Virus record (IMG/VR): IMGVR_UViG_3300025890_000021
Span: 26,404 to 90,403 of that record
DNA: 64,000 bases
DNA from: a virus
Taxonomy: Duplodnaviria; Caudoviricetes
Strand: one strand, 5' to 3'
Made by a program: the position numbers and the translations under genes. Shown one piece after another: positions 4,952 to 54,546 of the stretch (position 1 is its first letter; every line of letters begins with the position of its first letter). A model generated the notes under the pieces. It had not been told where the DNA came from and made no database searches. It saw only the letters and a list, made by a program, of their open reading frames with translations.

Positions 4952-5818
4952 CTATATCTCCACATTAATAGTTAGTAACATTGAATCTTTCAATGGATGT
5001 GTATCATCACCTGATATAAATCCTAATCCAACATTGTATTTATCATACTCGAATCCCATACCTATTGATGGATAATTCAACTGATGGTCTACATCACTAT
5101 AATATCCTGCTCTGAACCAAAACATATCTTTTAAGTTATATGATAAACCTTGTCCCATAGTATAGTATCCACTATAAATATTCCATTGATTATAAATATC
5201 CCAATTATTAATAGGTATTTTTACACCTACATTCAAACTTGTTGGAATCTCAATTTCATATCCATTCATCTTAGTCATTATACCGACATTAGCAATCATA
5301 ATATCCATATCTAATTTTTTCCAAAAATCATCCATGTGAATACCAACATCGAATAACATACCATCAGTTTTTTCTGTATATAAATCGTGAAAGACTACTT
5401 TACCCTCTACACCTATTGATACACTATCCAACTTATTACCCTTATAATATAAAGGTGTACCCCAACTCACTCCGAGTTTGGTGGTTGTTGGTGCAAACGA
5501 ACCATTGACTGTTCCATATAAATCAGTCGATTTCTGTTCTCCGTAATCAAAGTGTAAAAGGTTAAAGCCAAAACTCTTCCATCTTACATCAATATAGTTA
5601 TATCCCATATCATCTACGATATTCTTTAACCATTGTACATTTGTAAAACTTACATTGGTTGTAGTATCAAGATTGAAATGGTTTTTTGCGGGATTTCTAA
5701 ATGCAAGTGATTGGTTCCCCAATGTTGTTTCTTCTGCAGATGGTGATATCGTTAATACACGATTAACCTGTCCAAATAGAGAAGTTACAAACAACAAACC
5801 TAATATTACTTTTTTCAT
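4952..5818 (-). CDS. PorV/PorQ-family (FadL-like) outer-membrane barrel
   Basis: Signal peptide then LTISPSA..LG..A..NPA, VSFT..QWL, FDYG..STD..G...GSF pattern of PorV family. Confidence 0.7.
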   Translation of the reverse strand: MKKVILGLLFVTSLFGQVNRVLTISPSAEETTLGNQSLAFRNPAKNHFNLDTTTNVSFTNVQWLKNIVDDMGYNYIDVRWKSFGFNLLHFDYGEQKSTDLYGTVNGSFAPTTTKLGVSWGTPLYYKGNKLDSVSIGVEGKVVFHDLYTEKTDGMLFDVGIHMDDFWKKLDMDIMIANVGIMTKMNGYEIEIPTSLNVGVKIPINNWDIYNQWNIYSGYYTMGQGLSYNLKDMFWFRAGYYSDVDHQLNYPSIGMGFEYDKYNVGLGFISGDDTHPLKDSMLLTINVEI

Positions 5819-5829
5819 TATCTATCCTC

Positions 5830-8481
5830 TTATTTAACGACCGTAAATTTATTGGCCTTAATTTTATTTCCACTCTGTAAAACAAATATATAAACACCTG
5901 GTTCTAAAGTTTGGTGTTCTTGATAAACACTAACTTCAGGTAACCAAACACTTGGTTCATTTGAAAAATCAAATGTGTGTATACCTGGTTCTACACTCTC
6001 ATCTAACAATGTTCCAACATATTGTCCATTAGAGTTTAGTATGTAAAGTTTTACATCTGACAACTCTTCAACATAAAATTGGAATCTTGTATTTTCTCTA
6101 AATGGATTTGGATAGTTATAAGTTAGCTCATTCTCTTCTGGTTCTCCACCACCGAATGCCCAATATTTATTCCATACCATCACTTTACCACTCTGTCTAC
6201 TCACTAATAAATCTTGACCACTTGGATTACCAGCAGCATATTTATCAACGAAGTTTACAGGTGCTTCTGTCCACTCTGCATCAGGAAAATCTGCTCTGAA
6301 TAATAATGTTAGAGCATTTATCTGACTATCTATCCAATAAGTTTGTGGTGCGTTACCTGGTGAATAATCCATACCACCAAATGATACTTTCTGTTTACCT
6401 TGTATTGGTTCGTGTACATTCACATAAGTGAACCACGGCCCTGGTAAGTTTCCAGTCTTCATATCAACAAACTCTAATTCATTAGAATTAAATTCTACTT
6501 CAAACTCAAATCCAGCAACATTTACTTGTTCTGGTGTTAGAGTGAATGGTACTTCAATAATATCACCACTACGAACTCTGACTGTGGAATCTGCAGGTAA
6601 TGTCATAAACACATCAGGTGTATTAAATGCAATTTTGTTTGCCCAAGTACTTGGTGGGTTACCATTACCCCAACGATAATATGTATCGCCATTTATATCA
6701 ATGTATCCATCAGTACTTCCTACATCTTCAATATCGAAATCATCACCATCTGATGTTGAACCTGCTTCTTTTACTTTAGTACCACTTGCGTTTACATCTC
6801 CTGTAAAGAAGTATGCTAAACTATCAATTGTGTAATCTGGATTAACATCATTTCCATATGTAGATGAACCACCAGCAAAACCAATATCTAAGGTATCTAA
6901 ACCAGTCTGAATATCATCCATCAATGGATTGATAACTTCAATCTGTCCAAATTGTAATGTAGTATCTTGGTCAAAATCATCATCTTTGAATATAGTAAAC
7001 TCATATCTTTGATTACCCCAATCTTCATAGTATCCATAAGGAAATGGTTCACCACCCTCTTTTAGTGTATCGATAGTTGCCCAACTCTGTAGTGTATCAC
7101 CATTTAAGTGAACATATGTATCAATGATACCACTTGTGTATGCCCATAAGAAATATGCATCATTTAATTGGAATACATCATCTCCATCCACATCACCAAT
7201 AAAGTATTCAACTGCGTTTAGTGTATCTACACCTGTAACAGATTTAAACTTATTACTTTGGAAATTAAATGCTGCAATAGCATCGTTGATGTTTGTAATT
7301 CCATATCTATCCAATGTTAATGGTGTATGTGATTCAATATCATCACTAGCATCTGGTGGATAAAATGACATACGATATTTTTGGTTTCGTGGTAACTGAA
7401 TATTATAATATCCTCTATCATCTGTGTATGTAGAATCAAAATAACTTACTCCTAAGAAACCCTCACCTGGTAGCGTTTGTGCTGCAGTAGTTCCTTTATC
7501 ATCAAACCAAAATGTAGATGTATCATCACCAATGACATCATCGGTTGTTGTTTCATCAGTTAAGTTTGCTTCATTATCAATATCTTCAATGTTGTACCAA
7601 CTATTGTATTCATCTGGATTACTTTGGTCTAATTCAAATCTAATCTTCCAATAAGGATAAGTGTTATCATTAGTTATTGCATTATCTTGTGCATACCTAA
7701 AGTATCCCTCAACATCAACAAGTTTTGGATGTAGAGAAATATCTCCTCTTGCACCACCTTGGTCTGTTTCTTCCGTACCATAATTACCATCAATGTAAAC
7801 ATCGTAATCTAATAAGTAATCATCACTTATATAAGTGTAGTATCCCTCACCACCCTCATATAATGTTGGTACTCTAAAAGAACGCGGACTGAAATCATCC
7901 ACAACATCTTCTATTTTAAAATTTAATTTTACTAATTGTTTTTGAACACCCTCTCCACCACCAAAAGTAAATTCATCACCATTGTGTGATACCATTGTAA
8001 TTCTTAACCAATCGTATCTTGCATTAGCTTCTGATTTTTCACTATCAGCAGTTTGTAAAGAATCGATATATCCAACATCGGAATAGTGAACAACTTCATA
8101 TGAATAATCAGCTCCTGCGGTAGAATCACCCTCAGTTGCTTGAGTTAACCATGAACCTTTTAATACTTCAGTATCTTCATCATCCCAATCAATTATATCG
8201 TTATCAAAAATAATATCTAATCTTAGTGCAGTAACATCAGCACCATCATCATCAAGTGTAACTTCCATAGTCATTACACTATCTCTCCAAGCATCAAAAT
8301 TATTATTATACAAAGCAGGATTATCTTTATCATCTGCTAAGTAAGTTTGTAATTGATGCGTAACACTTTCTCTCCACCAATACTCTGGTGTATCATAAGT
8401 GCCAGTTTGCATAATCCTAATGACGGGTTCTTGTGGGAAGACAAAACCCAACCACATTAGGCCTATTATCAACCATCTCAT
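5830..8481 (-). CDS. T9SS type-A CTD cargo protein with cohesin-like and dockerin-like modules
   Basis: Signal peptide; C-terminal NYPNPF..VKLYILNSNGQYV..LEPGVYIFVL..KFTVVK; two cohesin-like segments; GDVDGDDVFQLND Ca-loop. Confidence 0.75.
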   Translation of the reverse strand: MRWLIIGLMWLGFVFPQEPVIRIMQTGTYDTPEYWWRESVTHQLQTYLADDKDNPALYNNNFDAWRDSVMTMEVTLDDDGADVTALRLDIIFDNDIIDWDDEDTEVLKGSWLTQATEGDSTAGADYSYEVVHYSDVGYIDSLQTADSEKSEANARYDWLRITMVSHNGDEFTFGGGEGVQKQLVKLNFKIEDVVDDFSPRSFRVPTLYEGGEGYYTYISDDYLLDYDVYIDGNYGTEETDQGGARGDISLHPKLVDVEGYFRYAQDNAITNDNTYPYWKIRFELDQSNPDEYNSWYNIEDIDNEANLTDETTTDDVIGDDTSTFWFDDKGTTAAQTLPGEGFLGVSYFDSTYTDDRGYYNIQLPRNQKYRMSFYPPDASDDIESHTPLTLDRYGITNINDAIAAFNFQSNKFKSVTGVDTLNAVEYFIGDVDGDDVFQLNDAYFLWAYTSGIIDTYVHLNGDTLQSWATIDTLKEGGEPFPYGYYEDWGNQRYEFTIFKDDDFDQDTTLQFGQIEVINPLMDDIQTGLDTLDIGFAGGSSTYGNDVNPDYTIDSLAYFFTGDVNASGTKVKEAGSTSDGDDFDIEDVGSTDGYIDINGDTYYRWGNGNPPSTWANKIAFNTPDVFMTLPADSTVRVRSGDIIEVPFTLTPEQVNVAGFEFEVEFNSNELEFVDMKTGNLPGPWFTYVNVHEPIQGKQKVSFGGMDYSPGNAPQTYWIDSQINALTLLFRADFPDAEWTEAPVNFVDKYAAGNPSGQDLLVSRQSGKVMVWNKYWAFGGGEPEENELTYNYPNPFRENTRFQFYVEELSDVKLYILNSNGQYVGTLLDESVEPGIHTFDFSNEPSVWLPEVSVYQEHQTLEPGVYIFVLQSGNKIKANKFTVVK

Positions 8482-23597: not shown

Positions 23598-23629
23598 AAT
23601 ATGGGAGTCTTTTCCGAGGCTCCCATATT
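23598..23629. terminator. hairpin between convergent genes
   Basis: AATATGGGAG ... CTCCCATATT inverted repeat. Confidence 0.65.
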
Positions 23630-24512
23630 ACTTTAAGATTTCCAAAGTTTTCTCAGCATTAAATCTTCCAGCTTTCGGCCAACCATTTATTGCACCATCA
23701 CTTTCACCTGGTGTTTTAATCCAAAGATATGCATCACAATATTCTGAATCTGTATCCGTAGTAGGTTTATTTCCTATCTTCATTTCTTGTGGATTAAATG
23801 TTTCCCAAACTTCATTACCATTTCGTGATGTATCAATAACATAACTACAACCAAAGTGTTTAGCAATCTTATCACCATATCGTATACACTTATCTGTAGT
23901 TACGAAGTTACTTGTGTTGATACTAAACCCTTGAACCTTATTAGAATGAAACATACCCAAGTAAGTAATTGCATCAGTTCTCTTTAACCATTTAGGATGT
24001 CCTATATCAAGATAAACTACTGCATTAGTTTTGGATAGTTTTTGTATTGTGGATTTTATGAGACGAGTTCGTTTTTGTCTTTGATAATAACTCATACCCT
24101 TTCTCATATGTGGAAGTGCATCAGGTTCGATTATTACAATAGGTGAGTAATCACCAATACCCTCTACCACTTCATTAATAAAATCATGATATTGAGTTTG
24201 TGTTAATCCACCTTTTGAATGTCCACCTACATCCCTATCTGGTATAGAATATAAAACAATAACAGGTTGATAGGGATGTGCTCGTTTACACAATCTGTGT
24301 ACTCTACTTGACAACCTCTTCAGTCGTTTGATAGGATTATCAACTAACCAAAAAGAATTAGGTTGTGAAGTTATCTGTTTTAACTGCGGATACTTTTCAG
24401 TATTATCTTTTCGGTAATCCCAGTCTTGGTGGTATAATTTTAACTGAACCACGAACCAGTGAACTTTGTCTCCACAGAACCTGATTGTAGGTAGTTCTTC
24501 TGTAGTTCCCAA
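23628..24512 (-). CDS. glycoside hydrolase family 6 (cellulase-like) catalytic domain
   Basis: LYSIPDRD..G.S.GG, IIEPDAL, VYLDIGH..WL, VIDTSRNG, DAYLWIKTPGESDG; true start may be a GTG near 24452. Confidence 0.85.
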   Translation of the reverse strand: MGTTEELPTIRFCGDKVHWFVVQLKLYHQDWDYRKDNTEKYPQLKQITSQPNSFWLVDNPIKRLKRLSSRVHRLCKRAHPYQPVIVLYSIPDRDVGGHSKGGLTQTQYHDFINEVVEGIGDYSPIVIIEPDALPHMRKGMSYYQRQKRTRLIKSTIQKLSKTNAVVYLDIGHPKWLKRTDAITYLGMFHSNKVQGFSINTSNFVTTDKCIRYGDKIAKHFGCSYVIDTSRNGNEVWETFNPQEMKIGNKPTTDTDSEYCDAYLWIKTPGESDGAINGWPKAGRFNAEKTLEILK

Positions 24513-25162
24513 TGATGTTTCTTCATCACATTGACAACACGAGTAATGTGTTGTGTGTTGGAACCAGTCATCTCACGAATTAAAATGTATAATGCCTTCT
24601 TGTTAAAGTTCTCAATATTTTCTCTCATATCAATCAATTCAACAACTGCGTTAGCAACATCCAAGTCTTTCTTTCGTTTAAAGACTGTAGTAAGATTGTT
24701 TCTCCAATAATCAGCAAGAAGAACAATGTATTCTGATTTCATTGACTTGGTGTCAATCCCTCTCATCTCTCCGACAGGGTCTCTCTTATAATCAGTAACC
24801 TCTTCACCATCATGCTGCTTCATTCTCTTGTAGTTATTATTGTTATGTAGAATGAGATAATTCTTGGCAACAATCGAGAAATATGAGAAGGCCTTACCCT
24901 TACCCTCGGCGAACTTATGAATGTTCATATACAAGAAACTAACCACCTCATGTTTAACATCGTCCGATGGAACATCAAAGTAGTAAAATTTAAAAGTGTG
25001 AATAATATTCTCAGCCAATTTTTCAAAAGGTGTACGAATATGTTCGTTATAGATTCTCTCCCTCATATGAGGTCGTTCTTCTTTATTATGACGAATGATA
25101 GCATTCTCGGTATCTTGATTGAAATAATATCTTGGTGAACCTTTTTTTGCTTTTCTTGGCAT
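24440..25162 (-). CDS. phage sigma-factor-like protein (gp55-like)
   Basis: KFAEGKGKAFSYFSIVAKNYLI resembles sigma region 2. Confidence 0.55.
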   Translation of the reverse strand: MPRKAKKGSPRYYFNQDTENAIIRHNKEERPHMRERIYNEHIRTPFEKLAENIIHTFKFYYFDVPSDDVKHEVVSFLYMNIHKFAEGKGKAFSYFSIVAKNYLILHNNNNYKRMKQHDGEEVTDYKRDPVGEMRGIDTKSMKSEYIVLLADYWRNNLTTVFKRKKDLDVANAVVELIDMRENIENFNKKALYILIREMTGSNTQHITRVVNVMKKHHWELQKNYLQSGSVETKFTGSWFS

Positions 25163-25413
25163 TATATCTCCTGCTCTGTTATTGTTGTTAATTCATTTAC
25201 GGCATCTTGGATACCCTCAAAGACTACTCCTATCTCATCATCCGATTCGAACTTACCCTCTGAATCTAATTCATCAAGTATTCTTTTAGTTTGTATTATT
25301 CTAGCGGAATAATTTTCAACCCAAGTTTCTAACCTCTCAACTTTTCTCATTTGATTGTAGGTAGTGAAACCTAATGTTACTGAAACTATTCCTAATATTA
25401 TTTCTACTATCAT
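25162..25413 (-). CDS. membrane-anchored hypothetical protein
   Basis: N-terminal TM helix. Confidence 0.6.
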   Translation of the reverse strand: MIVEIILGIVSVTLGFTTYNQMRKVERLETWVENYSARIIQTKRILDELDSEGKFESDDEIGVVFEGIQDAVNELTTITEQEI

Positions 25414-26186
25414 TTCTTATCTCCAAACAACTCATCAAATAAATCCTTTGGTGAATCACCTGTGAGTTTAGTTTCTACTTCAGTTTTAACAGCAGCTTTA
25501 ATATTGTTAACTGATTTGGCAACTTTCTTTTTACCAACCTGTCCTGCTTGTTCCCATTGGTCACCCTCGATATATGTTGCCATCATATCTGCTTGGTGTA
25601 GTATACGAGCAATATGACCTCTCAAACCAGTCTCTGGTAAGAATGTCATTAAATACTTTTTGTTTGCTTCTTCATACATTCCATCTGTTAATTTCAAACC
25701 CATGTATTCGTTTTCTGTCATAGGGATTTGAAAGTGTTGTAAAATAAATATTGCTCTATCTGTGACGGTCATGTAAGTTAATTCAGGATTATGATTGTAA
25801 ATCTTTCCTTGATTCTTTCTGTGCCATTCCGATTCATTGATTACATAGTAATCATGTTCCATATCTCCAACCTTACCTAAATCATGGTGTAGGGCTGCAA
25901 AGATTAATTCTTCATTTGTGAAATTAATATCTGCTCCATTCTGTAACCATAAATCTCTTACTTGTTGAGACATCTCTACAATGTGAATGACATGTTCTAC
26001 ATAACCACCAACACAAGCATTGTGATAATGTTCTTTAGCACTTGCTGGTGCTAATACCATTCTATCTTCAAAATGGTCATACATTGTATTTAACTTCTCT
26101 AACCTTTCACCTGTAAATGTATCATTAATGATACTGCGTAGTTTTAAGTAGTTATCTTGTATCTGTTGTTCTGTTAGTTGCTTCAT
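25410..26186 (-). CDS. HD-domain phosphohydrolase (YhaM-like)
   Basis: APAS..HYH..GGYVEH, ALHHDLGK, HQADMMA. Confidence 0.8.
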   Translation of the reverse strand: MKQLTEQQIQDNYLKLRSIINDTFTGERLEKLNTMYDHFEDRMVLAPASAKEHYHNACVGGYVEHVIHIVEMSQQVRDLWLQNGADINFTNEELIFAALHHDLGKVGDMEHDYYVINESEWHRKNQGKIYNHNPELTYMTVTDRAIFILQHFQIPMTENEYMGLKLTDGMYEEANKKYLMTFLPETGLRGHIARILHQADMMATYIEGDQWEQAGQVGKKKVAKSVNNIKAAVKTEVETKLTGDSPKDLFDELFGDKK

Positions 26187-26218
26187 AATGTTTTTATATC
26201 TCCAATTTTCTTACCCAT

Positions 26219-26258
26219 AATATAAGGCCAAATGACCATACGAGTCAAGTGTTTTTTT
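26219..26258 (-). promoter_or_regulatory. conserved sigma70-type promoter, copy 1
   Basis: A-tract, CAC-TTGACT-N18-TATATT. Confidence 0.7.
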
Positions 26259-27112
26259 TATTTTTTTTCATTTATTGATTTTAAATACGAACCACCTATA
26301 TTCCAAAAGAGTGTCTTACCCTTTAGTGTTTCAATATTCTGTTCTAACCAATACCATTGTTTCTTGTCCCAAAACTCATTACAATCAAATGGTACTTCGT
26401 AATCATCCATCATATCATCAAACGCGTAAGGTGATTTCTCAAGTATAACATTTTTTAAATCACCTGCATGATTCTCATTTAAAATCTTTTTTGTTGATGA
26501 GAAAGCACTCATCGTTATAGAGTAAACTTTTCTTGATTCAGAATCTAACTTCCACCAATCATCTCCATACTCTAAAAATTCTTTTATCAATCCACTTGCA
26601 GTAACTCCACTACCGATACTAACTACAAGGTTATCATATTCCCTACCTTTTAAAACTTCTCTCATTCTTGCCCCCATATAACTAATGTATGCGGGATGAT
26701 TGAATGCATATGGTAATTGTTGCCAACCATTCTCTTTTGCTTGTGTGTTCAATTTGTTCTGCATGAATGCCATCATGTTTGGTCTCATAGGATGTAACTT
26801 ACCACCATTACCCTCAACTCTTTCCAATAATATTTTTGGAAACCTTTCTGTATTAGGATACGCAGAAATAAATTCTATACCATACTCTTTACATAATTGT
26901 GATAGTGTCCAACCTGTCCAACTCCCATAAACTGATAAGTGTGTTAACGGCTTTGATTTATCAATACTATCACTTTCTAATATTCTTCTGATACCCTCTA
27001 TCTTTGACCATCGTGGAAATGTTACACCATCTCCAACTAAATCATCTCTCTTGACATCGACATCAATACCCTTAAGTGAATATGTTTCAATTGGTGTTTG
27101 TATTAAGTCCAT
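26258..27112 (-). CDS. PLP-dependent fold-type II enzyme (ACC deaminase / D-cysteine desulfhydrase-like)
   Basis: VKRDDL..SKI, LVVSIGSGVTASGL, LFWNIGG. Confidence 0.65.
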   Translation of the reverse strand: MDLIQTPIETYSLKGIDVDVKRDDLVGDGVTFPRWSKIEGIRRILESDSIDKSKPLTHLSVYGSWTGWTLSQLCKEYGIEFISAYPNTERFPKILLERVEGNGGKLHPMRPNMMAFMQNKLNTQAKENGWQQLPYAFNHPAYISYMGARMREVLKGREYDNLVVSIGSGVTASGLIKEFLEYGDDWWKLDSESRKVYSITMSAFSSTKKILNENHAGDLKNVILEKSPYAFDDMMDDYEVPFDCNEFWDKKQWYWLEQNIETLKGKTLFWNIGGSYLKSINEKK

Positions 27113-28608
27113 TTCCCAAATCCATTTTCAGTGCCAGATAAAGTATCTCTCATACCTTTATGTTTGAAACCAAATATTCTTTCAAAGTTATCACCGATAC
27201 AATGAAATAGTTTTTTTCTATTTCTAAAATTTAATTCTGTATCATTTAGAATTACATCTTCGATATACTCTTTGAAGTTTGTTCCTTTCTGAAATGCTCT
27301 TTTCTCTTGGTCACATACCTCGTCTGGTAAGTGTCCACGAAATGCTTCAGCAAGTGGTTTCTTCCATTGGTTTCCACTATTATCTAATACTGGTTGTGTA
27401 AGGTTAGTAGTGTAATCTAAAAAATCTAAATCGAAGAATGGACATCTTAATTCTATTGTTCCATAATTCATAAAGATATTATTTCCACGAAGTAAATTAC
27501 CATAGTATTGTTTCTCAAACAATTTCTTTCGTACATCACTCCAATCTGGTTTCTTACTGAACATTCTGAATGTACCATATGAACCATACGATTCATCAGA
27601 ACCCTCACCACTAAACGCAACCTTAACACCATCCTCTGCCATTCTCTCGGCAACATAACTTTGTAGAATACCAACTTCCATTTGGACTGTTGATGGATAT
27701 TCTATAACCTTTATTGTTTCTAAAAATTTTCTTTTTAATTCTTCTGGGTCTCTTGGTATCTCAACCTCAACCAATGGTACATTGATATGCTCTGCAACCA
27801 TTCTTGCAAACATTAAATCTCTTGAATCCTCATCGAACTTGACTGTATAAGATACGATATCAGGTACTTTCTTACTTAACAAATAAGTAATAACACTTGA
27901 ATCGATACCACCACTTAAACAAGTTCCAACCTTAACATCACTTAATAATCTTTTCTCTACTGCAGTATCTAACAACTCATAAGTTTTTTTATTAACCTCA
28001 TCTTGGTCAAACTCTTTTTCTTCAAATGGTGTCCAAGTAAAATAGTAATCTTTATCAATATGTACTGAACCAGTTATAGTGTTTATTCTCACTACTGAAT
28101 TTTTTGGAACAAACTTACATTCTGCTTGTGGTAATATTTTTAATATTGATTTCATTTCAGATGCAATTAAAATATTTGTATCATTGTTATAAATGTATAA
28201 TGGAATCTTACCAACCCAATCTCTTGATATAACTAACTCATTAGTTAATGAGTCATGTAATACAAAACTAAACATACCCTCTAATCTTTTTAGTTCATTC
28301 TCTTTGTATAGATATAAAATTATTTCTGAATCACTATTACTAAAAAATGTATAACCTCGTTCTTCATATTCTTTTCTTAATTGTGGATAGTTCCATATCT
28401 CACCATTAACTACAAGTGCATAATCATTCCAAATAAATGGCTGATTTCCTGCTTCACTTACATCATTTATACTTAATCTATTATGGCCCAGGTGTACATT
28501 ACCACACTCAAAAATCTCTCGATTATCCCTACCTCTGTGTTCAATTTGAAGTAACATATCGTGTACAACTTCATCACTATGATTGACCGTACTAACTATT
28601 CCACACAC
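27103..28608 (-). CDS. asnB: asparagine synthetase B-like glutamine amidotransferase
   Basis: MCGI, HRGRD, HNRLSI, NGEIWN, LSGGIDSS, SGEGSDE, ELRCPF.D. Confidence 0.9.
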   Translation of the reverse strand: MCGIVSTVNHSDEVVHDMLLQIEHRGRDNREIFECGNVHLGHNRLSINDVSEAGNQPFIWNDYALVVNGEIWNYPQLRKEYEERGYTFFSNSDSEIILYLYKENELKRLEGMFSFVLHDSLTNELVISRDWVGKIPLYIYNNDTNILIASEMKSILKILPQAECKFVPKNSVVRINTITGSVHIDKDYYFTWTPFEEKEFDQDEVNKKTYELLDTAVEKRLLSDVKVGTCLSGGIDSSVITYLLSKKVPDIVSYTVKFDEDSRDLMFARMVAEHINVPLVEVEIPRDPEELKRKFLETIKVIEYPSTVQMEVGILQSYVAERMAEDGVKVAFSGEGSDESYGSYGTFRMFSKKPDWSDVRKKLFEKQYYGNLLRGNNIFMNYGTIELRCPFFDLDFLDYTTNLTQPVLDNSGNQWKKPLAEAFRGHLPDEVCDQEKRAFQKGTNFKEYIEDVILNDTELNFRNRKKLFHCIGDNFERIFGFKHKGMRDTLSGTENGFGKWT

Positions 28609-29278
28609 GAAGTATCTCCTTTACATTTTTCTTTTCATTATTCATATCACCAAGATGAACTGAACCACCAATTGTTGTAACTCGTTTTAATTTTAAATCT
28701 GCTTGTTCACATAAGAACTTACCCATCTCACATAACGCAACCCAATCAGCATAACCACTCTTACTAATTCTCATACTTCTAAAAAAAGCTGTAAGATATA
28801 ATCCCTCTTTACGCGGTTTCAAATCAACCGATAACAAACATGGCATTCCTGCCATAGTCTTTCTACCATCGGATTTGGGGTCATATATGCTCATCGCTAT
28901 GGTTTTACTATTCTTATGCTCTTTCAATCTTTTGATAGTTTGTTCCACTTGATTAAAACTATTATCCCAATTAATCATTCTGCCCCAATATGTTTTATTC
29001 CATTTTACTGAAGTATCATTTTGTTGGTATTGTAACTCATCCATAAAAGGATGTGTTGTTGGTGGTACAAATGTAACCGATGATGCATAATCAATTCTAT
29101 CATTACCAAATACATCTCTGAAGATACCATCAAACTTTGGGTCTGTATCAAAGTTATCTTCTATCTCTACACTCATATTAATAGATTCATTCATCACATC
29201 TTTATTACCATTCTCTAAAAGATACTCGTGTGATTTTATCCAAGCATCTGTTGGTGAGTTTGAATTAATTACTATCAT
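28592..29278 (-). CDS. thymidylate synthase homolog (dCMP hydroxymethylase-like)
   Basis: YWGRM..NQVEQ.IKRL, catalytic PC, FRS..........D, SVH. Confidence 0.75.
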   Translation of the reverse strand: MIVINSNSPTDAWIKSHEYLLENGNKDVMNESINMSVEIEDNFDTDPKFDGIFRDVFGNDRIDYASSVTFVPPTTHPFMDELQYQQNDTSVKWNKTYWGRMINWDNSFNQVEQTIKRLKEHKNSKTIAMSIYDPKSDGRKTMAGMPCLLSVDLKPRKEGLYLTAFFRSMRISKSGYADWVALCEMGKFLCEQADLKLKRVTTIGGSVHLGDMNNEKKNVKEILRVWNS

Positions 29279-30894
29279 GATTTGTAGTATACAAATATAG
29301 GTTCAAATTTATAAACATTATTCTCATGTTGTACTGAGTTTAATATTCCTGTCTTACTTGGGTCTAACCCAATCATTCTTGTCATTAACATTTTTAGTTT
29401 ACCTTTATATTCACAACCCAACTCTTCAAGTATCTTTCTACTATCACCCTCTAAATCATAATAAGTGTTAGCACCAATCTTAATAGAAGCGATATTCCAA
29501 AGTAGGTATCTATCATTTTTTAGATATTCATATGCTGTTGTGAGTGTTGGTCTAAGAAAGTTATCAACCCAGTCTTCATATTGACTATACGCTTTGAAAG
29601 ATTGATTCTCATCTTGTGAGTATTGCTCTCTGTTAAAGTATGGTGGTGATGTGAAAACTAAATCTAACTTGCCCTTATACGCTTGAAAGTTAGAATTGTT
29701 CCCAATTAATTCACTACCCTCTCTATAAACATCATATGTATTACTTTGTTTTTCTACATCAAAGAACTGAGTAAATGTTTCAGAAAAATTATCTACACAA
29801 TTACTATTATAGAAATCAGCAACTGCTTCGTATCTACCGAAGTTATCTGGATTAGGGTCTGTACCAATATAATGTATCTTCTTACGAGAACTCATTGCTC
29901 CTAAGATTCTACCACCCCACCCACTACTTGGGTCATAGATATGAAACCTTTGGTCTTGATTATCTATATGGTCTGTAAATTTTTCGTACAATAGTTTTGC
30001 TGTAAGTGGTGGGAAGTTAACTGCTGGTTGTCCACATGCTAATCTAAACACTTGTAATATCTTTGGAAAGATACCAATAGTTTTATCATAGTGTCTGATT
30101 AGATATAAGAACTCAGTTACTTTACCACTCTTACTTGTTTCACTTGAAACTATATCTGGTATGTTACTTAATTGTGTATCATTCAAGTAACCACTATCTT
30201 TACAATCTTGTACTTCTTCTGCAGTTAAGTAAACATTTCCATGTCCTTTAAACTCTTCATTCATAGTACCATAATTACCGACTGTACTTTTCTTTACTCT
30301 TGCAAGTACAAATCTTGTATCTGAATACTTACCAATAGAAACTTTACCATCATGTACATTCTTAATAAATTCTTTACCACTCTCACCATTCCAAAAAGGA
30401 TTCTCATCTTTCTTGGTTACGATACTTCTACTCCAACTATACATAGAATCTTTCTTTACTGCTCTACGCATAATGTGAACAAACTTATCTTCTAACTCTG
30501 GGTCACCAAAGTGGTCATAGATAGATAAACCATTATCGGCTGATGCACCAATACTGATTTTTGTTTTTAACATTGTTGGGAAGAATTGATTTACACCAGA
30601 TGCATCTTTATTGAAGTTCTTAATTATACCAAGTGATTCTTTATCACCAGTATTATCTTCGATTAAATAATCACATGGATTACCTTTTAACTTTTTAAAT
30701 TTGGTAATCAACCCATCTTCATTTTTACCAATGACAGGTGGTGTACCATAAACATCCCATTGTTCAGTAACTTCTTTACGAAGTAATCGTGCCCATTCTG
30801 TGAATTCATCTGCACTCATTTGCAGAAGTTTGTGATATGTCGTATTTGATTTAAACTCAGAGAAACGACTTCTCTCATAAAACCATTTTTTCAA
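29275..30894 (-). CDS. SAM-dependent amino-methyltransferase-like protein
   Basis: YDPSSGWGGR motif I, YIGTDPN, DLVFTSPPYF motif IV. Confidence 0.75.
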   Translation of the reverse strand: MKKWFYERSRFSEFKSNTTYHKLLQMSADEFTEWARLLRKEVTEQWDVYGTPPVIGKNEDGLITKFKKLKGNPCDYLIEDNTGDKESLGIIKNFNKDASGVNQFFPTMLKTKISIGASADNGLSIYDHFGDPELEDKFVHIMRRAVKKDSMYSWSRSIVTKKDENPFWNGESGKEFIKNVHDGKVSIGKYSDTRFVLARVKKSTVGNYGTMNEEFKGHGNVYLTAEEVQDCKDSGYLNDTQLSNIPDIVSSETSKSGKVTEFLYLIRHYDKTIGIFPKILQVFRLACGQPAVNFPPLTAKLLYEKFTDHIDNQDQRFHIYDPSSGWGGRILGAMSSRKKIHYIGTDPNPDNFGRYEAVADFYNSNCVDNFSETFTQFFDVEKQSNTYDVYREGSELIGNNSNFQAYKGKLDLVFTSPPYFNREQYSQDENQSFKAYSQYEDWVDNFLRPTLTTAYEYLKNDRYLLWNIASIKIGANTYYDLEGDSRKILEELGCEYKGKLKMLMTRMIGLDPSKTGILNSVQHENNVYKFEPIFVYYKS

Positions 30895-30913
30895 TGTAAC
30901 TCCGTTATTGTTT

Positions 30914-30925
30914 AATAATAAATAT
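30914..30925 (-). promoter_or_regulatory. WTAYTTATWW motif heading the modification cluster
   Basis: ATATTTATTATT about 20 nt upstream of the start at 30894. Confidence 0.45.
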
Positions 30926-30929
30926 AATC

Positions 30930-34124: not shown

Positions 34125-34580
34125 CTAATAGCGTTCATTAGCAGGTGTATCATATTCAATTAATCCAGTCATTTCTGATGATGAACGAATTTTTTTACCT
34201 AAGTTCTGAACGAACTCTATACCTAATTCACTACATACTTTTACCTCTGGTGAATTACTAGCATCTCTATCTCCACCATTACAAAAGATTAGTTTATTCA
34301 TAGGTTTAAATCTATGTACCATCCTAATAGTTTCACATACTGATTTAGTTTCATCACAAGCTAAGATTACTTCATCAACCATATCTAAATGATACACGAT
34401 TTCTAATCTATCATATTCTGCCATAAACTCATCACCCTTTTTCAACATACATTGTTCGTGATTGTTAACAATTACAATTAACTCATCTGCCATCTCTTTA
34501 GCTAATTTGAAATACTCAATATGACCTACATGAAGTGGGTCAAAGTATCCACTAACTATTGCTGTCTTTTTTCTCGACAT
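34125..34580 (-). CDS. HIGH-motif cytidylyl/adenylyltransferase
   Basis: SGYFDPLHVGH, FCNGGDR, SSS; start reassigned to MSRKK. Confidence 0.85.
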   Translation of the reverse strand: MSRKKTAIVSGYFDPLHVGHIEYFKLAKEMADELIVIVNNHEQCMLKKGDEFMAEYDRLEIVYHLDMVDEVILACDETKSVCETIRMVHRFKPMNKLIFCNGGDRDASNSPEVKVCSELGIEFVQNLGKKIRSSSEMTGLIEYDTPANERY

Positions 34581-34702
34581 CTGTCTTACTCTCCTTGTGT
34601 TTCTTTCTAAATATTTTATCCCAATTATCAGAATACTTTTTGTAATCTGATGTTCTTGGTGCACTACCTTTTGTAGTACCTGAATCATATATTGATTTCT
34701 TC

Positions 34703-37643: not shown

Positions 37644-38153
37644 TTAAAAATCACCTGGTGCTACTTGGAAAGTATTAAGACCTAAGTCTCTCCACATCTT
37701 TACAACTTTATCCCTATCATCAACTACAAGAAAGACATCGTTGATATCCACAAAGGTATCTAACATTTTTTTCTTGAGTAAGTCATCAGGCATAAACCTC
37801 ATATCGAAAGTGGCTGGATTACCATCGGCAATTGGCCAAGAGTGGTCTTTGAACTTATCTGGTCTAAGAACCAAAAGGTCAAAAGGTACATCGTGTTTCT
37901 GTAACCAATCTTTAGTCGCGAAGAAACCTCTATCGTTCCTACCCGAAAAGATTACAACTTTGAAACCATCGGCGTGGAACATCTGTGCCATCTTGATGAC
38001 TGGAGCATTAGGTGTATCCCAATGAAGAATAGAATCTGGCGAAGCAAATATATCCCAATTAAGTTTACCATTAGGTTTTACTGACCTAGCTCTCCGAACA
38101 TCAATATTAGCAAGAGTACCGTCTAAATCAAATATGACTGTTTTCTTGTTCAT
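37644..38153 (-). CDS. HAD-family phosphatase (PseT 3'-phosphatase-like)
   Basis: IFDLDGTLA, SGR, VDDR..VVKMWR.LG; start reassigned after AAGGAG. Confidence 0.85.
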   Translation of the reverse strand: MNKKTVIFDLDGTLANIDVRRARSVKPNGKLNWDIFASPDSILHWDTPNAPVIKMAQMFHADGFKVVIFSGRNDRGFFATKDWLQKHDVPFDLLVLRPDKFKDHSWPIADGNPATFDMRFMPDDLLKKKMLDTFVDINDVFLVVDDRDKVVKMWRDLGLNTFQVAPGDF

Positions 38154-38176
38154 AATATCTCCTTTATTCATACTTG

Positions 38177-38210
38177 AATATAAGGATAAAACATAATACA
38201 AGTCAAGAAA
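38177..38210 (-). promoter_or_regulatory. conserved sigma70-type promoter, copy 3
   Basis: TTGACT-N18-TATATT. Confidence 0.6.
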
Positions 38211-47671: not shown

Positions 47672-48259
47672 CTATATAGCGTAGCCGAACAAATCAAAAT
47701 CATCTTTAAAATGTTTACCTACAATTTCTTTTAATTCATCATCATAATAATGTTCCCATGAGTTATGGTCTATAGATTTATTATAATGTGGTAATTGCTT
47801 TTCTCCACCAATCTTTTTTATAAAATACTGATAATCATTCTCAAGGTTTTCATACCTACCAATAAAATCTAATGGTCTATTAATGTATACAGATTGTGGT
47901 ATTGCAACCATATTATGTTGTGCTGATAATTGTTTTATTAACCACTCTTTATATGGTTTCTTTGCTTCTTCTATCGTGGAATGAGTGTGTCCTTGTATTC
48001 TTTTATATTGTGGTGATTGATGATAGAAGTAAAAACTAACACATCTATCATATGGATTACGAACAAATGCTAATTTAAAATACTCATCCCATATCTCATC
48101 ACCTACTCTCTTCTTTACTAAAGATGCTGGTGAATGTGGATAACCATCTTTATTCCTTAATACCTTAAATCCTGCTGGATTAAATGAATTACGAATACTT
48201 GTTCCTGCCACTTTAGGATTATGTATGAATATAAACTTGTATGATTTATGTACAAACAT
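47672..48259 (-). CDS. sulfotransferase family 2 protein
   Basis: FIHNPKVAGTSI, FVRNPYDR.VSFY, FIGRYENL. Confidence 0.85.
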   Translation of the reverse strand: MFVHKSYKFIFIHNPKVAGTSIRNSFNPAGFKVLRNKDGYPHSPASLVKKRVGDEIWDEYFKLAFVRNPYDRCVSFYFYHQSPQYKRIQGHTHSTIEEAKKPYKEWLIKQLSAQHNMVAIPQSVYINRPLDFIGRYENLENDYQYFIKKIGGEKQLPHYNKSIDHNSWEHYYDDELKEIVGKHFKDDFDLFGYAI

Positions 48260-49320: not shown

Positions 49321-50325
49321 TTACTCCTTTATTCTATCCCAATTAAATCCATTACCATACGCACCCCACTCGGATGTTTTGTAATAGATTGGTTTCTTTA
49401 AATCTAAAAATTCTATAATTCCTTGTGGGGATAAATCATATTCATTACTGATATCCCACTCCCCAAGTTTTGTCTGAATAATACATTGTATTGGTTCTTT
49501 CATTCCAATACCATAACTCAACTGAACAAACACTTCATCTATATCTCCAATACCACCTTTTAATAATTGGTCTTTCGCGATATATCTTGCCATGTATGCA
49601 GCACTTCTATCAACCTTACTTGGGTCTTTACCACTATACGCTCCACCACCGATTGGAACTCTTGGGCCGTAGTTATCAACTACTAATTTCCTACCAGTCA
49701 ATCCTGCATCTGCATCGAATCCACCTTGTTCCCAATCTCCTGCTGGATTACAAAATATCTTTGTATCTTTATATTTATCCTTATCTTCCAACCATTGTGT
49801 AATTAAATATCTTAATTGCCCAGAACTTGCATTCTGAAAACTACAAACGATTGCAATTATATTATGGTCTTCATCTATGGTAATTTGTGTCTTACCATCA
49901 TATTCGAATATATTATAAATGTGTTTACATAAACTTCTTGCTAAGTAATATTCTTGTGGTACAAAATCTTCGTTGTGATTACATGCATAACCAATCATAA
50001 TACCTTGGTCTCCTGCACCACCATCATCAACACCTCTACCAATCTCTGGTGATTGTTTCACCAAGTTAACTGATGTGGTATGTGTCTTATCGTAAATCTC
50101 TGGTTCACCTAATACCTCATCTACTAAATGTGGTACAGGTATTTCTTTATCTGAATTAATTGTAACTTCACCATTGATGTAGATATGCCCGTGTCCACCC
50201 ATTGTTTCAACGGCTACTCGGGCATCTCTATCTTCAGTAAGACAGTAATCTAATATCCTATCAGATATTCTATCACATATCTTATCAGGATGTTTCGGTG
50301 TTACAAACTCTGCTGTTCTATACAC
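49321..50325 (-). CDS. metK: S-adenosylmethionine synthetase
   Basis: EFVTPKHPDKICD, GAGDQG, DAGLTGRK..DNYG..GGGAYSGKDPSKVDRSAAY. Confidence 0.95.
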   Translation of the reverse strand: MYRTAEFVTPKHPDKICDRISDRILDYCLTEDRDARVAVETMGGHGHIYINGEVTINSDKEIPVPHLVDEVLGEPEIYDKTHTTSVNLVKQSPEIGRGVDDGGAGDQGIMIGYACNHNEDFVPQEYYLARSLCKHIYNIFEYDGKTQITIDEDHNIIAIVCSFQNASSGQLRYLITQWLEDKDKYKDTKIFCNPAGDWEQGGFDADAGLTGRKLVVDNYGPRVPIGGGAYSGKDPSKVDRSAAYMARYIAKDQLLKGGIGDIDEVFVQLSYGIGMKEPIQCIIQTKLGEWDISNEYDLSPQGIIEFLDLKKPIYYKTSEWGAYGNGFNWDRIKE

Positions 50326-53227: not shown

Positions 53228-53616
53228 ATGCTTTTCCAAAAATATTTTGATGTATCCCATAAATACATTAGGAATACAACCCCCAAAACTCCTATTGCAA
53301 CTAATGTTCCAATAGTAATTGTCATTATAAATATAAGGATGAACGCCATAAATTCAAATATATCTTTAACAAATTTAGAACCACTAACAAGTGAATCTCC
53401 AAAATCATTATCTCTGGTCATTATTTCCTTATGTATCTTATCATCCATACCCAATACCAAACTACTCCTATAAACAAGAGTACTTGTATTATTGCTCTGA
53501 AATCGTCTGTTATATTTATTTCCATGATGTAACATATGCGACATCATATCACTCATATATAAATAGTAACTATATCTCAAATCTATCATTTTGTTCTGCA
53601 AACTTTTCATTATCAC
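53215..53616 (-). CDS. membrane hypothetical protein
   Basis: Long hydrophobic stretch; true start probably internal. Confidence 0.4.
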   Translation of the reverse strand: MIMKSLQNKMIDLRYSYYLYMSDMMSHMLHHGNKYNRRFQSNNTSTLVYRSSLVLGMDDKIHKEIMTRDNDFGDSLVSGSKFVKDIFEFMAFILIFIMTITIGTLVAIGVLGVVFLMYLWDTSKYFWKSIKNT

Positions 53617-54373
53617 TAATTATAGTTTTGAACAAATCAATATCTAATCCTAATTCCTCTACTAACTTTGCTAACCCTCTTGTATCTTTGGGTAAACAAG
53701 TTCCACCAAATCCACCATACTCTTTATTCACTTTTAGATAATGTCCATCACCTACTCCATGAAATAAAAACGCATCTTTCACTACATCATAGTTTGCATC
53801 AACCTCGTTACATATCTTATAAAACGCGTTGGCAAATGTTACTCTCATTGCTTTATAACTATTACTGAAGTACTTCATTAACTCACCCTCGATAGGTTTC
53901 ATCACGACTGTATGTGTTGGTAGATTACCATGACACTCTTTAACCAATCGTATTGTTTCTTCATCTTCAGTACCTATAACTAATATATTATTATTATATT
54001 TAAAATCATACTCAGCACATTTCTCTCTCAAGAACTCTGGTACAAAACTTATATCTAATCCATCACCATTGTGATAAAACTCTTCTCTCCATTTATCCAC
54101 ACTACCTGGTTTGATTGTACTCTTAACACAAACCTTACCTTTGTATTTAAGATTATATAATTCTCTTAGAACACTATGTACAATACTTGTATCACACTCA
54201 CCATTATCACCTGATGGTGTAGGTACACAAATGTAAGTAATTGGTGTATCCAAGACATCTGTAATGCTTGTTTCCAACCTAACATCATGACAGATAGTTT
54301 CATGTCCAACTGATTCAAAACCTTTTGATATTGCTGTACCAACAAAACCTTTTCCTATTATTCCTATTTTCAT
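53570..54373 (-). CDS. UDP-glucose/GDP-mannose dehydrogenase family protein lacking the C-terminal domain
   Basis: GIIGKGFVG, ICVPTP, KST, PEFLRE, MKY..N, GFGGTCLPKD. Confidence 0.85.
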   Translation of the reverse strand: MKIGIIGKGFVGTAISKGFESVGHETICHDVRLETSITDVLDTPITYICVPTPSGDNGECDTSIVHSVLRELYNLKYKGKVCVKSTIKPGSVDKWREEFYHNGDGLDISFVPEFLREKCAEYDFKYNNNILVIGTEDEETIRLVKECHGNLPTHTVVMKPIEGELMKYFSNSYKAMRVTFANAFYKICNEVDANYDVVKDAFLFHGVGDGHYLKVNKEYGGFGGTCLPKDTRGLAKLVEELGLDIDLFKTIISDNEKFAEQNDRFEI

Positions 54374-54546
54374 TATAACCCACTTCCATATTCATGTACT
54401 ACTCTCCACTCTAATGGTGGTCTGTTTCTTTTATATTGTTCCATACTCCATTCTAAATCATCAGTAGTTATATCCAATGATTCAACCTCAAGTCCCTTAT
54501 CATCTGTGTATGTAATCTCGATGATATATCTCTTCTTCTTATCCAT
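54373..54546 (-). CDS. small hypothetical protein (57 aa)
   Basis: Hand translation MDKKKRYIIEITY..TDDLEWSMEQYKRNR. Confidence 0.55.
   Translation of the reverse strand: MDKKKRYIIEITYTDDKGLEVESLDITTDDLEWSMEQYKRNRPPLEWRVVHEYGSGL

Follow-up and report, generated by a model that had tools for sequence, protein, structure and literature searches.

A four-gene module of an uncultured marine phage that probably builds an undescribed amide-bearing DNA base

Four overlapping genes in a 64,000-nucleotide stretch of DNA from an uncultured marine phage (the window) quite likely form, in our working model, a virus-only module for DNA nucleobase hypermodification. We propose that its product is probably an amide-bearing base not described before, with cytosine as the most likely starting point. 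Judged by homology, three of the four enzymes are related to enzymes shown to decorate phage DNA bases. A nucleobase hypermodification pathway that is not yet characterised was also the reading of an earlier note on this DNA, and it remains the best one, backed by the homology to M6 gp52 and to CmoY. The gene combination matches no published pathway, and our literature search found no published description of it.

When the ORF coordinates of the window were recomputed, the four genes were found on the minus strand with overlaps of 4, 17 and 10 nt (Table 1), exactly as had been claimed. The claim of one upstream motif could be checked only in part. The AT-rich motif TTATATTTATTATTAAA lies in the 35-nt spacer, and variants with up to three mismatches occur nine times in the window against 3.85 expected, a number reached by 1 of 100 shuffles, several of them just upstream of other minus-strand genes; a sigma-70-type promoter scan did no better than on shuffled sequence. 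Two contigs from the RNA libraries of one study (X15 and X16) span positions 24546-29908 unbroken, but we drew no conclusion from them about expression or an operon transcript, since DNA can be present in RNA libraries and a transcript cannot be demonstrated from contigs.

Table 1. Positions of the module genes and adjoining features in the window.
Feature	Position	Strand	Length and remarks
SPPY methyltransferase-like (MTase-like) protein, long form	29275..30894	(-)	539 aa; TTG start, GGAG 7 nt upstream
TS-fold enzyme (TS-like), short form, cytosine type	28592..29278	(-)	228 aa
AsnB, Asn-synthetase-family amidotransferase, glutamine-hydrolysing	27103..28608	(-)	501 aa; GTG start
PLP enzyme, fold-type II, M6 gp52 homolog	26258..27112	(-)	284 aa
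HD-type metal-dependent phosphohydrolase	25410..26186	(-)	258 aa; phrog_28876, 1.2e-12
Upstream spacer	30895..30929	(-)	35 nt; AT-rich promoter-like motif TTATATTTATTATTAAA; GGAG ribosome-binding site precedes TTG start

IMG/VR contigs whose TS identity is as low as 57% still have the gene order MTase-like, TS-like, AsnB, PLP. Phages that are far more distant carry the set too, with the genes rearranged; there, a PLP homolog (40-43% identity) directly follows the TS-like gene and MTase-like and Asn-synthase-like genes lie nearby. We counted the genes in 33 distinct loci flanked on each side by 4 kb or more, and found an Asn-synthetase-like gene in 32 and at least one MTase-like paralog likewise in 32, with up to three per genome. 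The TS-like gene was present in 22 loci and a 2-hydroxyacid dehydrogenase in 11, never both and never neither, so that one or the other occupies all 33. This neighbourhood survey bears out the proposed co-conservation and supports the view that the four genes work as one conserved unit; their linkage is far beyond chance. Together with the homology to M6 gp52 and CmoY, it also upholds the earlier view of AsnB and the PLP enzyme as pathway members rather than generic metabolic genes. One locus (L025) holds a TS-like gene, a PLP gene and a CmoY-like ligase gene, with no MTase-like gene within 2 kb upstream or 7 kb downstream. No TS-fold gene was found in the complete 134.5-kb genome of dehydrogenase type (G001), which keeps the PLP gene, AsnB and three MTase-like genes. 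The TS-like gene is thus not essential to the wider module; the conserved core can do without a C5-modified nucleotide, and something other than the C5 of cytosine might be the target. The module is abundant: at least 64 distinct PLP sequences are present in IMG/VR, and marine metagenomes of at least ten studies contain near-identical copies of the window stretch. The operon had no DNA match among the INPHARED phages, and neither the PLP-like nor the TS-like protein had a relative in the representative genomes of 185,579 prokaryote species.

The PLP enzyme belongs, by full-length homology, to the family of M6 gp52 and ViI gp226, from which its activity is predicted. It matches Pfam PALP weakly (0.0055) and phrog_7093 at 9e-25, aligns by tblastn with M6/YuA-type phages at 29% identity over 96% of its length (E 4e-21), and is found at 2.1e-24 when M6 gp52 is the phmmer query. 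The candidate aldimine lysine K37 is invariant, as are G167 and V170 (alignment A3), and the Gly-rich loop S-I-G-S-G-V-T (165-171) has the conserved form S-x-G-S-G-V-T. M6 gp52 is a PLP-dependent decarboxylase of DNA-bound C-alpha-glycinylthymine with K36 as its aldimine lysine, and the substrate of the family is a free alpha-amino acid on a DNA base (PMC8989533). A decarboxylase of DNA-bound amino acids as the known relative fits the earlier idea of an amino-acid-derived side chain. The PHROG label of the family, 'threonine dehydratase', traces to M6 gp52.

AsnB combines Pfam Asn_synthase (1.9e-43) and GATase_7 (1.3e-33) domains. Its GTG start gives the N-terminus M-C-G-I-V and therefore places the Ntn cysteine at residue 2. 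The glutaminase set (C2, R44, N68-G69-E70 and D93) and the PP-loop (S232-G-G-x-D-S237) are intact and invariant or nearly so across the family. The residues aligned to E348, D351, Y357, K376 and R387 of E. coli AsnB are kept, and the position aligned to D384 is an invariant Asn. The protein scores 293.2 bits against 267.1 for TIGR01536 and 263.8 against 499 for the AsnB equivalog NF006949. Its place above the NCBI TIGR01536 cut-off for true asparagine synthase counts against the hypermodification reading, as does the retention of E348, D351 and R387. Its relatives form a 501-aa metagenomic family of 64-69% identity (among the 120 best clusters listed, more than 100 lie at 63-70%), and the best match in INPHARED, in Streptomyces phage TurkishDelight, has 30% identity. 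CmoY of phage S-B43, a proven DNA 5-carboxymethylcytosine:glycine ligase of the Asn-synthetase family (PMC12783734), matches the window AsnB weakly (1.2e-7) and its counterparts in sister loci at 2.6e-42, 1.9e-22 and 3.7e-8, the first two being proteins without a glutaminase domain. An ammonia-using ligase clade that bears a glutaminase has been predicted by Yang et al. 2025 (PMC12783734).

The TS-like protein matches Pfam Thymidylat_synt (PF00303) at 30.3 bits against a cut-off of 24.3, and Foldseek matched its AF2 model (pLDDT 91) with a probability of 1.00 to MilA, AfhB and many ThyA structures. The best fold and profile matches were the CMP hydroxymethylase MilA (5jnh) and the dCMP 5-hydroxylase AfhB of phage HY126 (9iqc/9iqu); a single-sequence PDB search returned noise only, and a profile search was required. 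C147 and R167-S168, which correspond to C146 and R166-S167 of ThyA, are invariant in 28 sequences and align with the equivalent residues of AfhB and MilA, and D178 (ThyA N177) and H208 are invariant as well. Position 144 (ThyA L143) is Gly in the window and Gly or Lys across the family, while position 170 (ThyA D169) is Arg in the window and Arg or Ala in relatives, never Asn. In D178, in R170 and in its profile scores (75.6 against 174.55 for TIGR03283, 16.9 against a cut-off of 405 for NCBIfam NF002499) the protein departs from canonical dTMP-forming ThyA. In the published rules, dCMP/CMP hydroxymethylases (T4 gp42, MilA) combine N177D with an acidic residue (Asp/Glu) at L143, and D169N is diagnostic of 5-hydroxy-dCMP synthases (RB69 gp48, AfhB), folate enzymes keeping Asp there (PMC13326640). 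The window protein carries N177D as D178 but no acidic L143 equivalent, and it does not carry D169N. By its Asp at the N177 position it is of cytosine type, with a signature that fits no characterised subclass; given Gly or Lys at L143 and Arg or Ala at D169, its product and cofactor are not readable from these rules. The 5-hydroxymethyl-pyrimidine suggested earlier as the product of the TS homolog is thus not borne out, as neither the acidic L143 residue nor D169N is there. Of the three near-complete TS-type genomes examined, two (G005 and G006) also encode a canonical ThyA or ThyX at another site, so that the TS-like protein is not the housekeeping TS; no other TS gene was found in the third (G004), the nearest near-complete relative of the window. 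The TS-like protein had no tblastn match in INPHARED phages.

The MTase-like protein matches Pfam N6_N4_Mtase (PF01555) at 27.9 bits against 26.7, in its C-terminal half only and with half of the profile covered; its PHROG matches are phrog_12517/498. Its class I SAM-MTase domain comprises approximately residues 290-539, in which motif I (D321-x-S-x-G-W-G-x-R329) and motif IV (T-S-P-P-Y-F, 415-420) are invariant in 22 sequences (alignment A4). Foldseek with the AF2 model (pLDDT 81) returned generic class I MTase matches only, and no PDB sequence match was found. The N-terminal ~290 aa are virus-only, and an atlas search led to unnamed viral hypothetical clusters, all below 0.9. By motifs and fold the protein is of the SPPY amino-methyltransferase type, and methylation of an exocyclic DNA amine is predicted; N-methylation is plausible, and the enzyme could transfer another group instead. 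In other lineages the long-form gene lies 5-10 kb from the core, and its membership is accordingly less firmly supported than that of the three other genes.

The modules lie within replication and nucleotide-metabolism blocks that contain RNR, thioredoxin, DNA polymerase B, gp44/45, UvsX, gp41 and MazG. The gene for the HD protein, for which no PDB or Pfam match was found, lies 71 nt downstream of the module with a promoter-like site of its own; it is kept beside the module in the window clade and in the L012 clade, and also adjoins the dehydrogenase-type modules L078, L101 and L102. We infer that it is a possible accessory member. Also downstream is a co-conserved protein of 240 aa (g24440), which by atlas features looks like a phage sigma factor (0.97); it was rejected as a module member, its conservation being taken as synteny. 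The window encodes a SAM synthetase (49321-50325) and is rich in auxiliary genes (PhoH, MetK, PDF, CobS-like, carbamoyltransferase). We weighed whether the carbamoyltransferase (54539-56071) might work with the TS-like enzyme in a 5-carbamoyloxymethylcytosine route; it is absent from the near-complete TS-type genomes G004 and G006 and is therefore not a core member.

We hypothesize the following route, in which the sequence of reactions, the way the side chain is attached and the product are all proposals. The TS-like enzyme would make a C5-substituted dCMP that enters DNA, or would supply a C5 carbon handle, and the PLP enzyme would form or trim a side chain that derives from an amino acid and has its amine and carboxylate free. 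AsnB would then adenylate the remaining carboxylate and convert it to a carboxamide with glutamine-derived ammonia, after which the SPPY protein would methylate or alkylate an amino or amide nitrogen of the base or side chain. The result would be a cytosine derivative with an amide and possibly an amine, which would protect the phage genome against host nucleases. One difficulty is that a PLP decarboxylase and an amidotransferase would both need the same carboxylate, except where the side chain carries two of them or the PLP enzyme catalyses a reaction other than decarboxylation. The most specific form of the proposal is tentative and, in all its details, unlikely: an undescribed base such as cytosine with a C5 side chain that bears both a primary amine and a carboxamide, possibly N-methylated, would be made with neither the pair of 5-hmU kinase and amino-acid transferase nor carboxy-SAM; the TS-fold enzyme, with its rewired cofactor pocket, and the gp52-family PLP enzyme would forge the amino-acid side chain, a 2-hydroxyacid dehydrogenase would replace the TS-fold enzyme in a sister pathway, and AsnB would cap the carboxylate, using ammonia from glutamine.

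Instead of C5, the core might modify an exocyclic nitrogen, N4 of cytosine or N6 of adenine, with SPPY enzymes transferring a non-methyl group such as 3-amino-3-carboxypropyl (acp) or carboxymethyl from a SAM-type donor, the PLP enzyme, dehydrogenase and AsnB tailoring it, and the TS-like enzyme adding an optional, independent second mark at C5; the amidation would resemble that of diphthamide biosynthesis. Several observations would suit this route, namely the spread of MTase-like paralogs over 32 of the 33 loci (up to three per genome), the TS-free genome G001 with its PLP gene, AsnB and three MTase-like genes, the SAM synthetase of the window, and the fact that an acp group would satisfy the need of the gp52 family for a free alpha-amino acid. 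Yet no DNA enzyme of amino-MTase fold is known for acp or carboxymethyl transfer, the fold search gave generic MTase matches, L025 lacks a nearby MTase-like gene, and the route leaves unexplained both the strict exclusivity of the TS-like and dehydrogenase genes and their constant position in the cluster. We consider it unlikely.

Much lower still is the probability that we assign to two other explanations. Were these unrelated auxiliary genes beside an orphan DNA MTase, AsnB would make asparagine, the PLP enzyme would be a Ser/Thr dehydratase or ACC-deaminase-like, and TS would make dTMP, which agrees with the TIGR01536 score, the PHROG label, the many auxiliary genes of the window and the lack of another TS in G004. 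Against this, the linkage persists at only 40-47% identity and in different gene orders, the label derives from a protein that is experimentally a DNA-side-chain decarboxylase, and the TS-like protein has Asp at N177, Arg/Ala at D169 and 75.6 against the true-TS cut-off of 174.55. Moreover, real ThyA/ThyX also occur in other carriers, the ligase slot of sister loci holds CmoY-type enzymes without a glutaminase domain, and the PLP-like and TS-like families lack relatives in the prokaryote genomes scanned; the explanation is disfavoured and very improbable. Equally doubtful is a variant of the known M6/ViI-type thymidine (5-hmdU) pathway. A gp52-family PLP gene beside a TS homolog and an HD hydrolase does recall M6 gp52, gp58 and gp59, but phmmer at E<=1 found no homolog of the kinase gp54, the transferase gp51 or the radical SAM protein gp53 in the window, the TS-like specificity position is Asp and not Asn, and no similarity between the HD protein and M6 gp59 could be detected.

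Phage DNA hypermodifications set resistance to restriction enzymes, CRISPR and other defences, and they also yield new enzymes for use in DNA labelling and in sequencing chemistry. If the module were worked out, the likely gains would be a new DNA base, a new way to link a side chain to a pyrimidine and a new TS-fold activity; some of the modification signal that is so far unexplained in marine viromes would be accounted for as well. In the part of the MetaGPA Pfam tables covered here (PMC8670742), Asn_synthase and PALP are not among the families listed and GATase_7 is not enriched; as far as these tables go, they neither support nor contradict a hypermodification reading.

M6/ViI and CmoXY are the two side-chain pathways best understood so far, and the module joins relatives of enzymes from both, with the starting enzymes of neither detected. 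In diphthamide biosynthesis, a side chain with an amine and a carboxylate is methylated by a SAM enzyme and finally amidated by an ATP-dependent PP-loop enzyme. The likeness would be a functional analogy only: diphthamide is made on a protein histidine, its synthesis involves no PLP step, and homology goes no further than the PP-loop superfamily. With the cytosine-specific enzymes T4 gp42, MilA, RB69 gp48, DLP3 gp80 and HY126 AfhB, the last three being flavin-dependent dCMP 5-hydroxylases, the TS-like protein shares the TS fold, the catalytic Cys, the Arg-Ser phosphate clamp and Asp at N177 (PMC13326640), and with AfhB also the short form of ~230 aa; the window family differs in Gly/Lys at L143 and Arg/Ala at D169.

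With M6/ViI thymidine hypermodification (Lee et al. 2018, PMC5889632; Lee et al. 2021, PMC8989533) the module has in common a fold-II PLP enzyme of the gp52/gp226 family with the same candidate aldimine Lys, a TS-family gene close by, a setting in a replication/nucleotide block and, as predicted, an amino-acid-derived side chain. The 5-hmU DNA kinase, the aGPT-Pplase amino-acid:DNA transferase (AADT) and the radical SAM isomerase were not detected: M6 gp51, gp53 and gp54 gave no phmmer hit at E<=1 to any window ORF of at least 60 aa, a threshold that misses remote homologs of the known side-chain installing enzymes, and the kinase and aGPT-Pplase Pfam families were absent among the genes neighbouring the module. 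The window TS homolog is, unlike theirs, of cytosine type with a non-canonical cofactor pocket, and the module has two further members, an Asn-synthetase-type amidotransferase and an SPPY MTase-like protein. CmoA, CmoX and CmoY of Synechococcus phage S-B43 make 5-carboxymethylcytosine and its glycine amide (PMC12783734), and the feature in common would be an AMP-forming enzyme of the Asn-synthetase family that turns a base-borne carboxylate into an amide. The window enzyme, a complete AsnB that includes the glutaminase domain, is only weakly matched by CmoY, and the MTase-like protein is of amino-MTase (SPPY) type, whereas CmoX is a C5-MTase. No window ORF matched the carboxy-SAM synthase CmoA or the C5-cytosine carboxymethyltransferase CmoX by phmmer at E<=1; in their place, the window has its TS-like and PLP genes.

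Jointly, the enzymes encoded by the MTase-like, TS-like, AsnB and PLP genes would build an amino-acid-derived, amide-bearing side chain, and we infer that it is most likely carried on cytosine. When the coordinates were recomputed, the four ORFs were found to overlap by 4, 17, and 10 nt, exactly as the earlier note had described. The MTase-like gene starts with TTG, with GGAG 7 nt 5' of the start, while the AsnB gene starts with GTG and reads M-C-G-I-V; since the Ntn cysteine is residue 2 with this start, the 17-nt overlap between the TS-like and AsnB genes is real. A full-text literature search revealed no published account of this gene combination.

Positions of the module genes and of other window genes discussed in the text
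Feature	Position	Strand	Remark
MTase-like gene	29275-30894	-	539 aa
TS-like gene	28592-29278	-	228 aa
AsnB gene	27103-28608	-	501 aa
PLP gene	26258-27112	-	284 aa
HD-type phosphohydrolase (HD) gene	25410-26186	-	downstream of PLP gene
240-aa protein	24440-25162	-	kept downstream of module
Glycoside hydrolase family 6 (cellulase-type) domain	23628-24512	-	Pfam 1.5e-45; TTG start
Cytidylyltransferase-like	34125-34688	-	scattered upstream of module
PNKP-type HAD phosphatase	37644-38201	-	scattered upstream of module
Sulfotransferase	47672-48259	-	scattered upstream of module
SAM synthetase	49321-50325	-	all three MetK domains
UDP-glucose-dehydrogenase-like	53570-54373	-	scattered upstream of module
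NodU/CmcH-type carbamoyltransferase	54539-56071	-	phrog_1601, 5.8e-102
490-aa protein	59530-61002	-	GmrSD_N-like N-terminus, C-terminal HNH

The order MTase-like, TS-like, AsnB, PLP, HD is kept in IMG/VR contigs down to 57% TS identity. Phages that are far more remote (TS identity 43-47%) have a PLP homolog immediately after the TS-like gene, with an Asn-synthase-like gene that lacks the glutaminase domain and an MTase-like gene close by. A gene-neighbourhood survey, which the earlier note had proposed for the TS clade, was performed by searching outward from the PLP family; it gave 33 distinct loci, each flanked by 4 kb or more on either side. TS-like, Asn-synthase-like, and MTase-like genes occur together in 22 of the 33 loci, while a D-2-hydroxyacid dehydrogenase replaces the TS-like gene in the other 11; no locus had both and none had neither. 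The complete genome of a dehydrogenase-type phage (134.5 kb) encodes ThyX and three MTase-like paralogs, and no TS-fold gene was found in it. Neighbours of the module include RNR, thioredoxin, DNA polymerase B, clamp/clamp-loader, UvsX, helicase, and MazG genes. At one dehydrogenase-type locus (L030), a cytosine-deaminase-family amidohydrolase (5085-6158 of that locus; NF005365, 7.5e-102) was observed directly 5' of the dehydrogenase, PLP, and AsnB genes, a further hint that the pathway concerns cytosine.

The PLP protein is a full-length homolog of gp52 of Pseudomonas phage M6 (E-values of 4e-21 by tblastn and 2e-24 by phmmer). Biochemical proof exists that gp52, for which K36 is the proposed aldimine lysine, decarboxylates C-alpha-glycinylthymine in DNA; for its relative ViI gp226, the substrate is O-serinylthymine (PMC8989533). 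The K36 counterpart, K37, is invariant in the family alignment, and homology places the predicted enzyme in a family whose substrates are amino acids borne by DNA bases. The MTase-like protein contains a class I SAM-methyltransferase domain in which the motifs D-x-S-x-G-W-G-x-R and T-S-P-P-Y-F do not vary, and its N-terminal 290 residues are virus-only; homology identifies it as a putative SAM-dependent amino-MTase-like enzyme. There are two subfamilies, a long form of ~540 aa, the sole one in the window lineage, and a short form of ~410 aa, which adjoins the core elsewhere. The window-encoded SAM synthetase could feed the SAM-dependent MTase-like enzyme.

The TS-like protein scores slightly over the Pfam threshold. 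The nearest folds to its AF2 model (pLDDT 91) are the CMP hydroxymethylase MilA and the dCMP 5-hydroxylase AfhB of phage HY126, which were again the first matches of the family profile. Across 28 relatives, three features never vary: the catalytic Cys, the Arg-Ser clamp, and Asp at the site of ThyA N177. A published rule takes Asp at this site as the mark of dCMP-type substrates, an acidic residue at L143 as that of hydroxymethylases, and D169N as that of 5-hydroxylases (PMC13326640). In the TS-like family, the L143 position is Gly or Lys and the D169 position is Arg or Ala. The TS homolog had been proposed to make a 5-hydroxymethyl-pyrimidine, but the hydroxymethylase mark is absent; since the 5-hydroxylase mark is missing as well, the product is not readable from known signatures. 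D169 of ThyA touches the folate cofactor, and the Arg or Ala at this site suggests that the cofactor pocket may be altered. Homology supports a predicted cytosine-type TS-fold enzyme. Canonical ThyA or ThyX is encoded elsewhere in two of the three near-complete TS-type genomes examined, which makes the TS-like gene an additional, specialised paralog.

Could the four genes instead be unrelated auxiliary metabolic genes? We disfavour this explanation, as the linkage data and the divergent signatures speak against it, as does the restriction of the PLP-like and TS-like families to viruses: a scan of representative genomes of 185,579 prokaryote species detected neither. A different alternative follows the strict exclusivity of the TS-like gene and the dehydrogenase, which indicates that the conserved core is independent of a C5-modified nucleotide: a core with no such need would suit MTase-like enzymes that put a non-methyl SAM-derived group on an exocyclic nitrogen, although we regard this as improbable. 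For the amide-bearing side chain that we favour, decarboxylation and amidation would compete for a single carboxylate. No homolog of the known side-chain starter enzymes (5-hmU DNA kinase, amino-acid:DNA transferase, CmoA, CmoX) was detected in the window (phmmer, E<=1).

The window has a G+C content of 33%, and its minus strand holds nearly all plausible genes; near-identical copies occur in marine metagenomes from at least 10 studies. Other genes encode a baseplate wedge protein, PhoH, peptide deformylase, a CbbQ/CobS-like AAA ATPase, UvdE, Hsp20, and two tRNAs, besides the SAM synthetase. One marine metagenome DNA contig, at a low depth of 2.5 and with a shorter side of 21 nt, joins 26284 to 30914, exactly omitting the four module genes, and a second joint, 26283 to 27721, was seen in four of four runs. 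Too weak to count as evidence, these joints possibly reflect relatives in which the segment is present or absent like a cassette, or has been replaced. The language-model features of the 240-aa protein resemble those of phage sigma-70-region-2 proteins (0.97); it could act as a late sigma factor, which would fit the AT-rich TATA-like motif 5' of several genes. The glycoside hydrolase family 6 domain is unusual for a phage, and the 73-nt overlap of its gene with the upstream gene indicates that the true start is probably later.

The 490-aa protein shares 37% identity over 445 aa with the product of a GmrSD_N/HNH gene that directly adjoins the PLP gene at another phage locus (L029). That a phage should encode a type IV-restriction-like nuclease alongside a modification module is worth noting. 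NodU/CmcH-type enzymes of other phages convert 5hmC to 5-carbamoyloxymethylcytosine. The window's carbamoyltransferase was rejected as a core partner: two of five related records carry it, and two near-complete TS-type genomes lack it. At a further locus (L101), a sulfotransferase gene lies near the module. The window's sulfotransferase, UDP-glucose-dehydrogenase-like, cytidylyltransferase-like, and PNKP-type HAD phosphatase genes could be auxiliary genes for sugars or nucleotide sugars.

Both catalytic centres of AsnB are complete and invariant across the family; the score of the protein exceeds the TIGR01536 cut-off and falls short of that of the AsnB equivalog model. CmoY of Synechococcus phage S-B43, an Asn-synthetase homolog, ligates glycine to 5-carboxymethylcytosine in DNA, and a glutaminase-bearing ligase clade using ammonia has been predicted only (PMC12783734, 2025). 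We located CmoY in the S-B43 record and compared it directly with the ligases of the module: it matched the glutaminase-less ligases of sister loci at 2.6e-42, 1.9e-22, and 3.7e-8, and the window AsnB at 1.2e-7. By homology, AsnB is a predicted AMP-forming amidotransferase whose family has a DNA-acting member. The ligase slot of the module holds either a CmoY-type enzyme or a full AsnB, which argues that the job of this ligase would be to amidate a carboxylate carried by the base.
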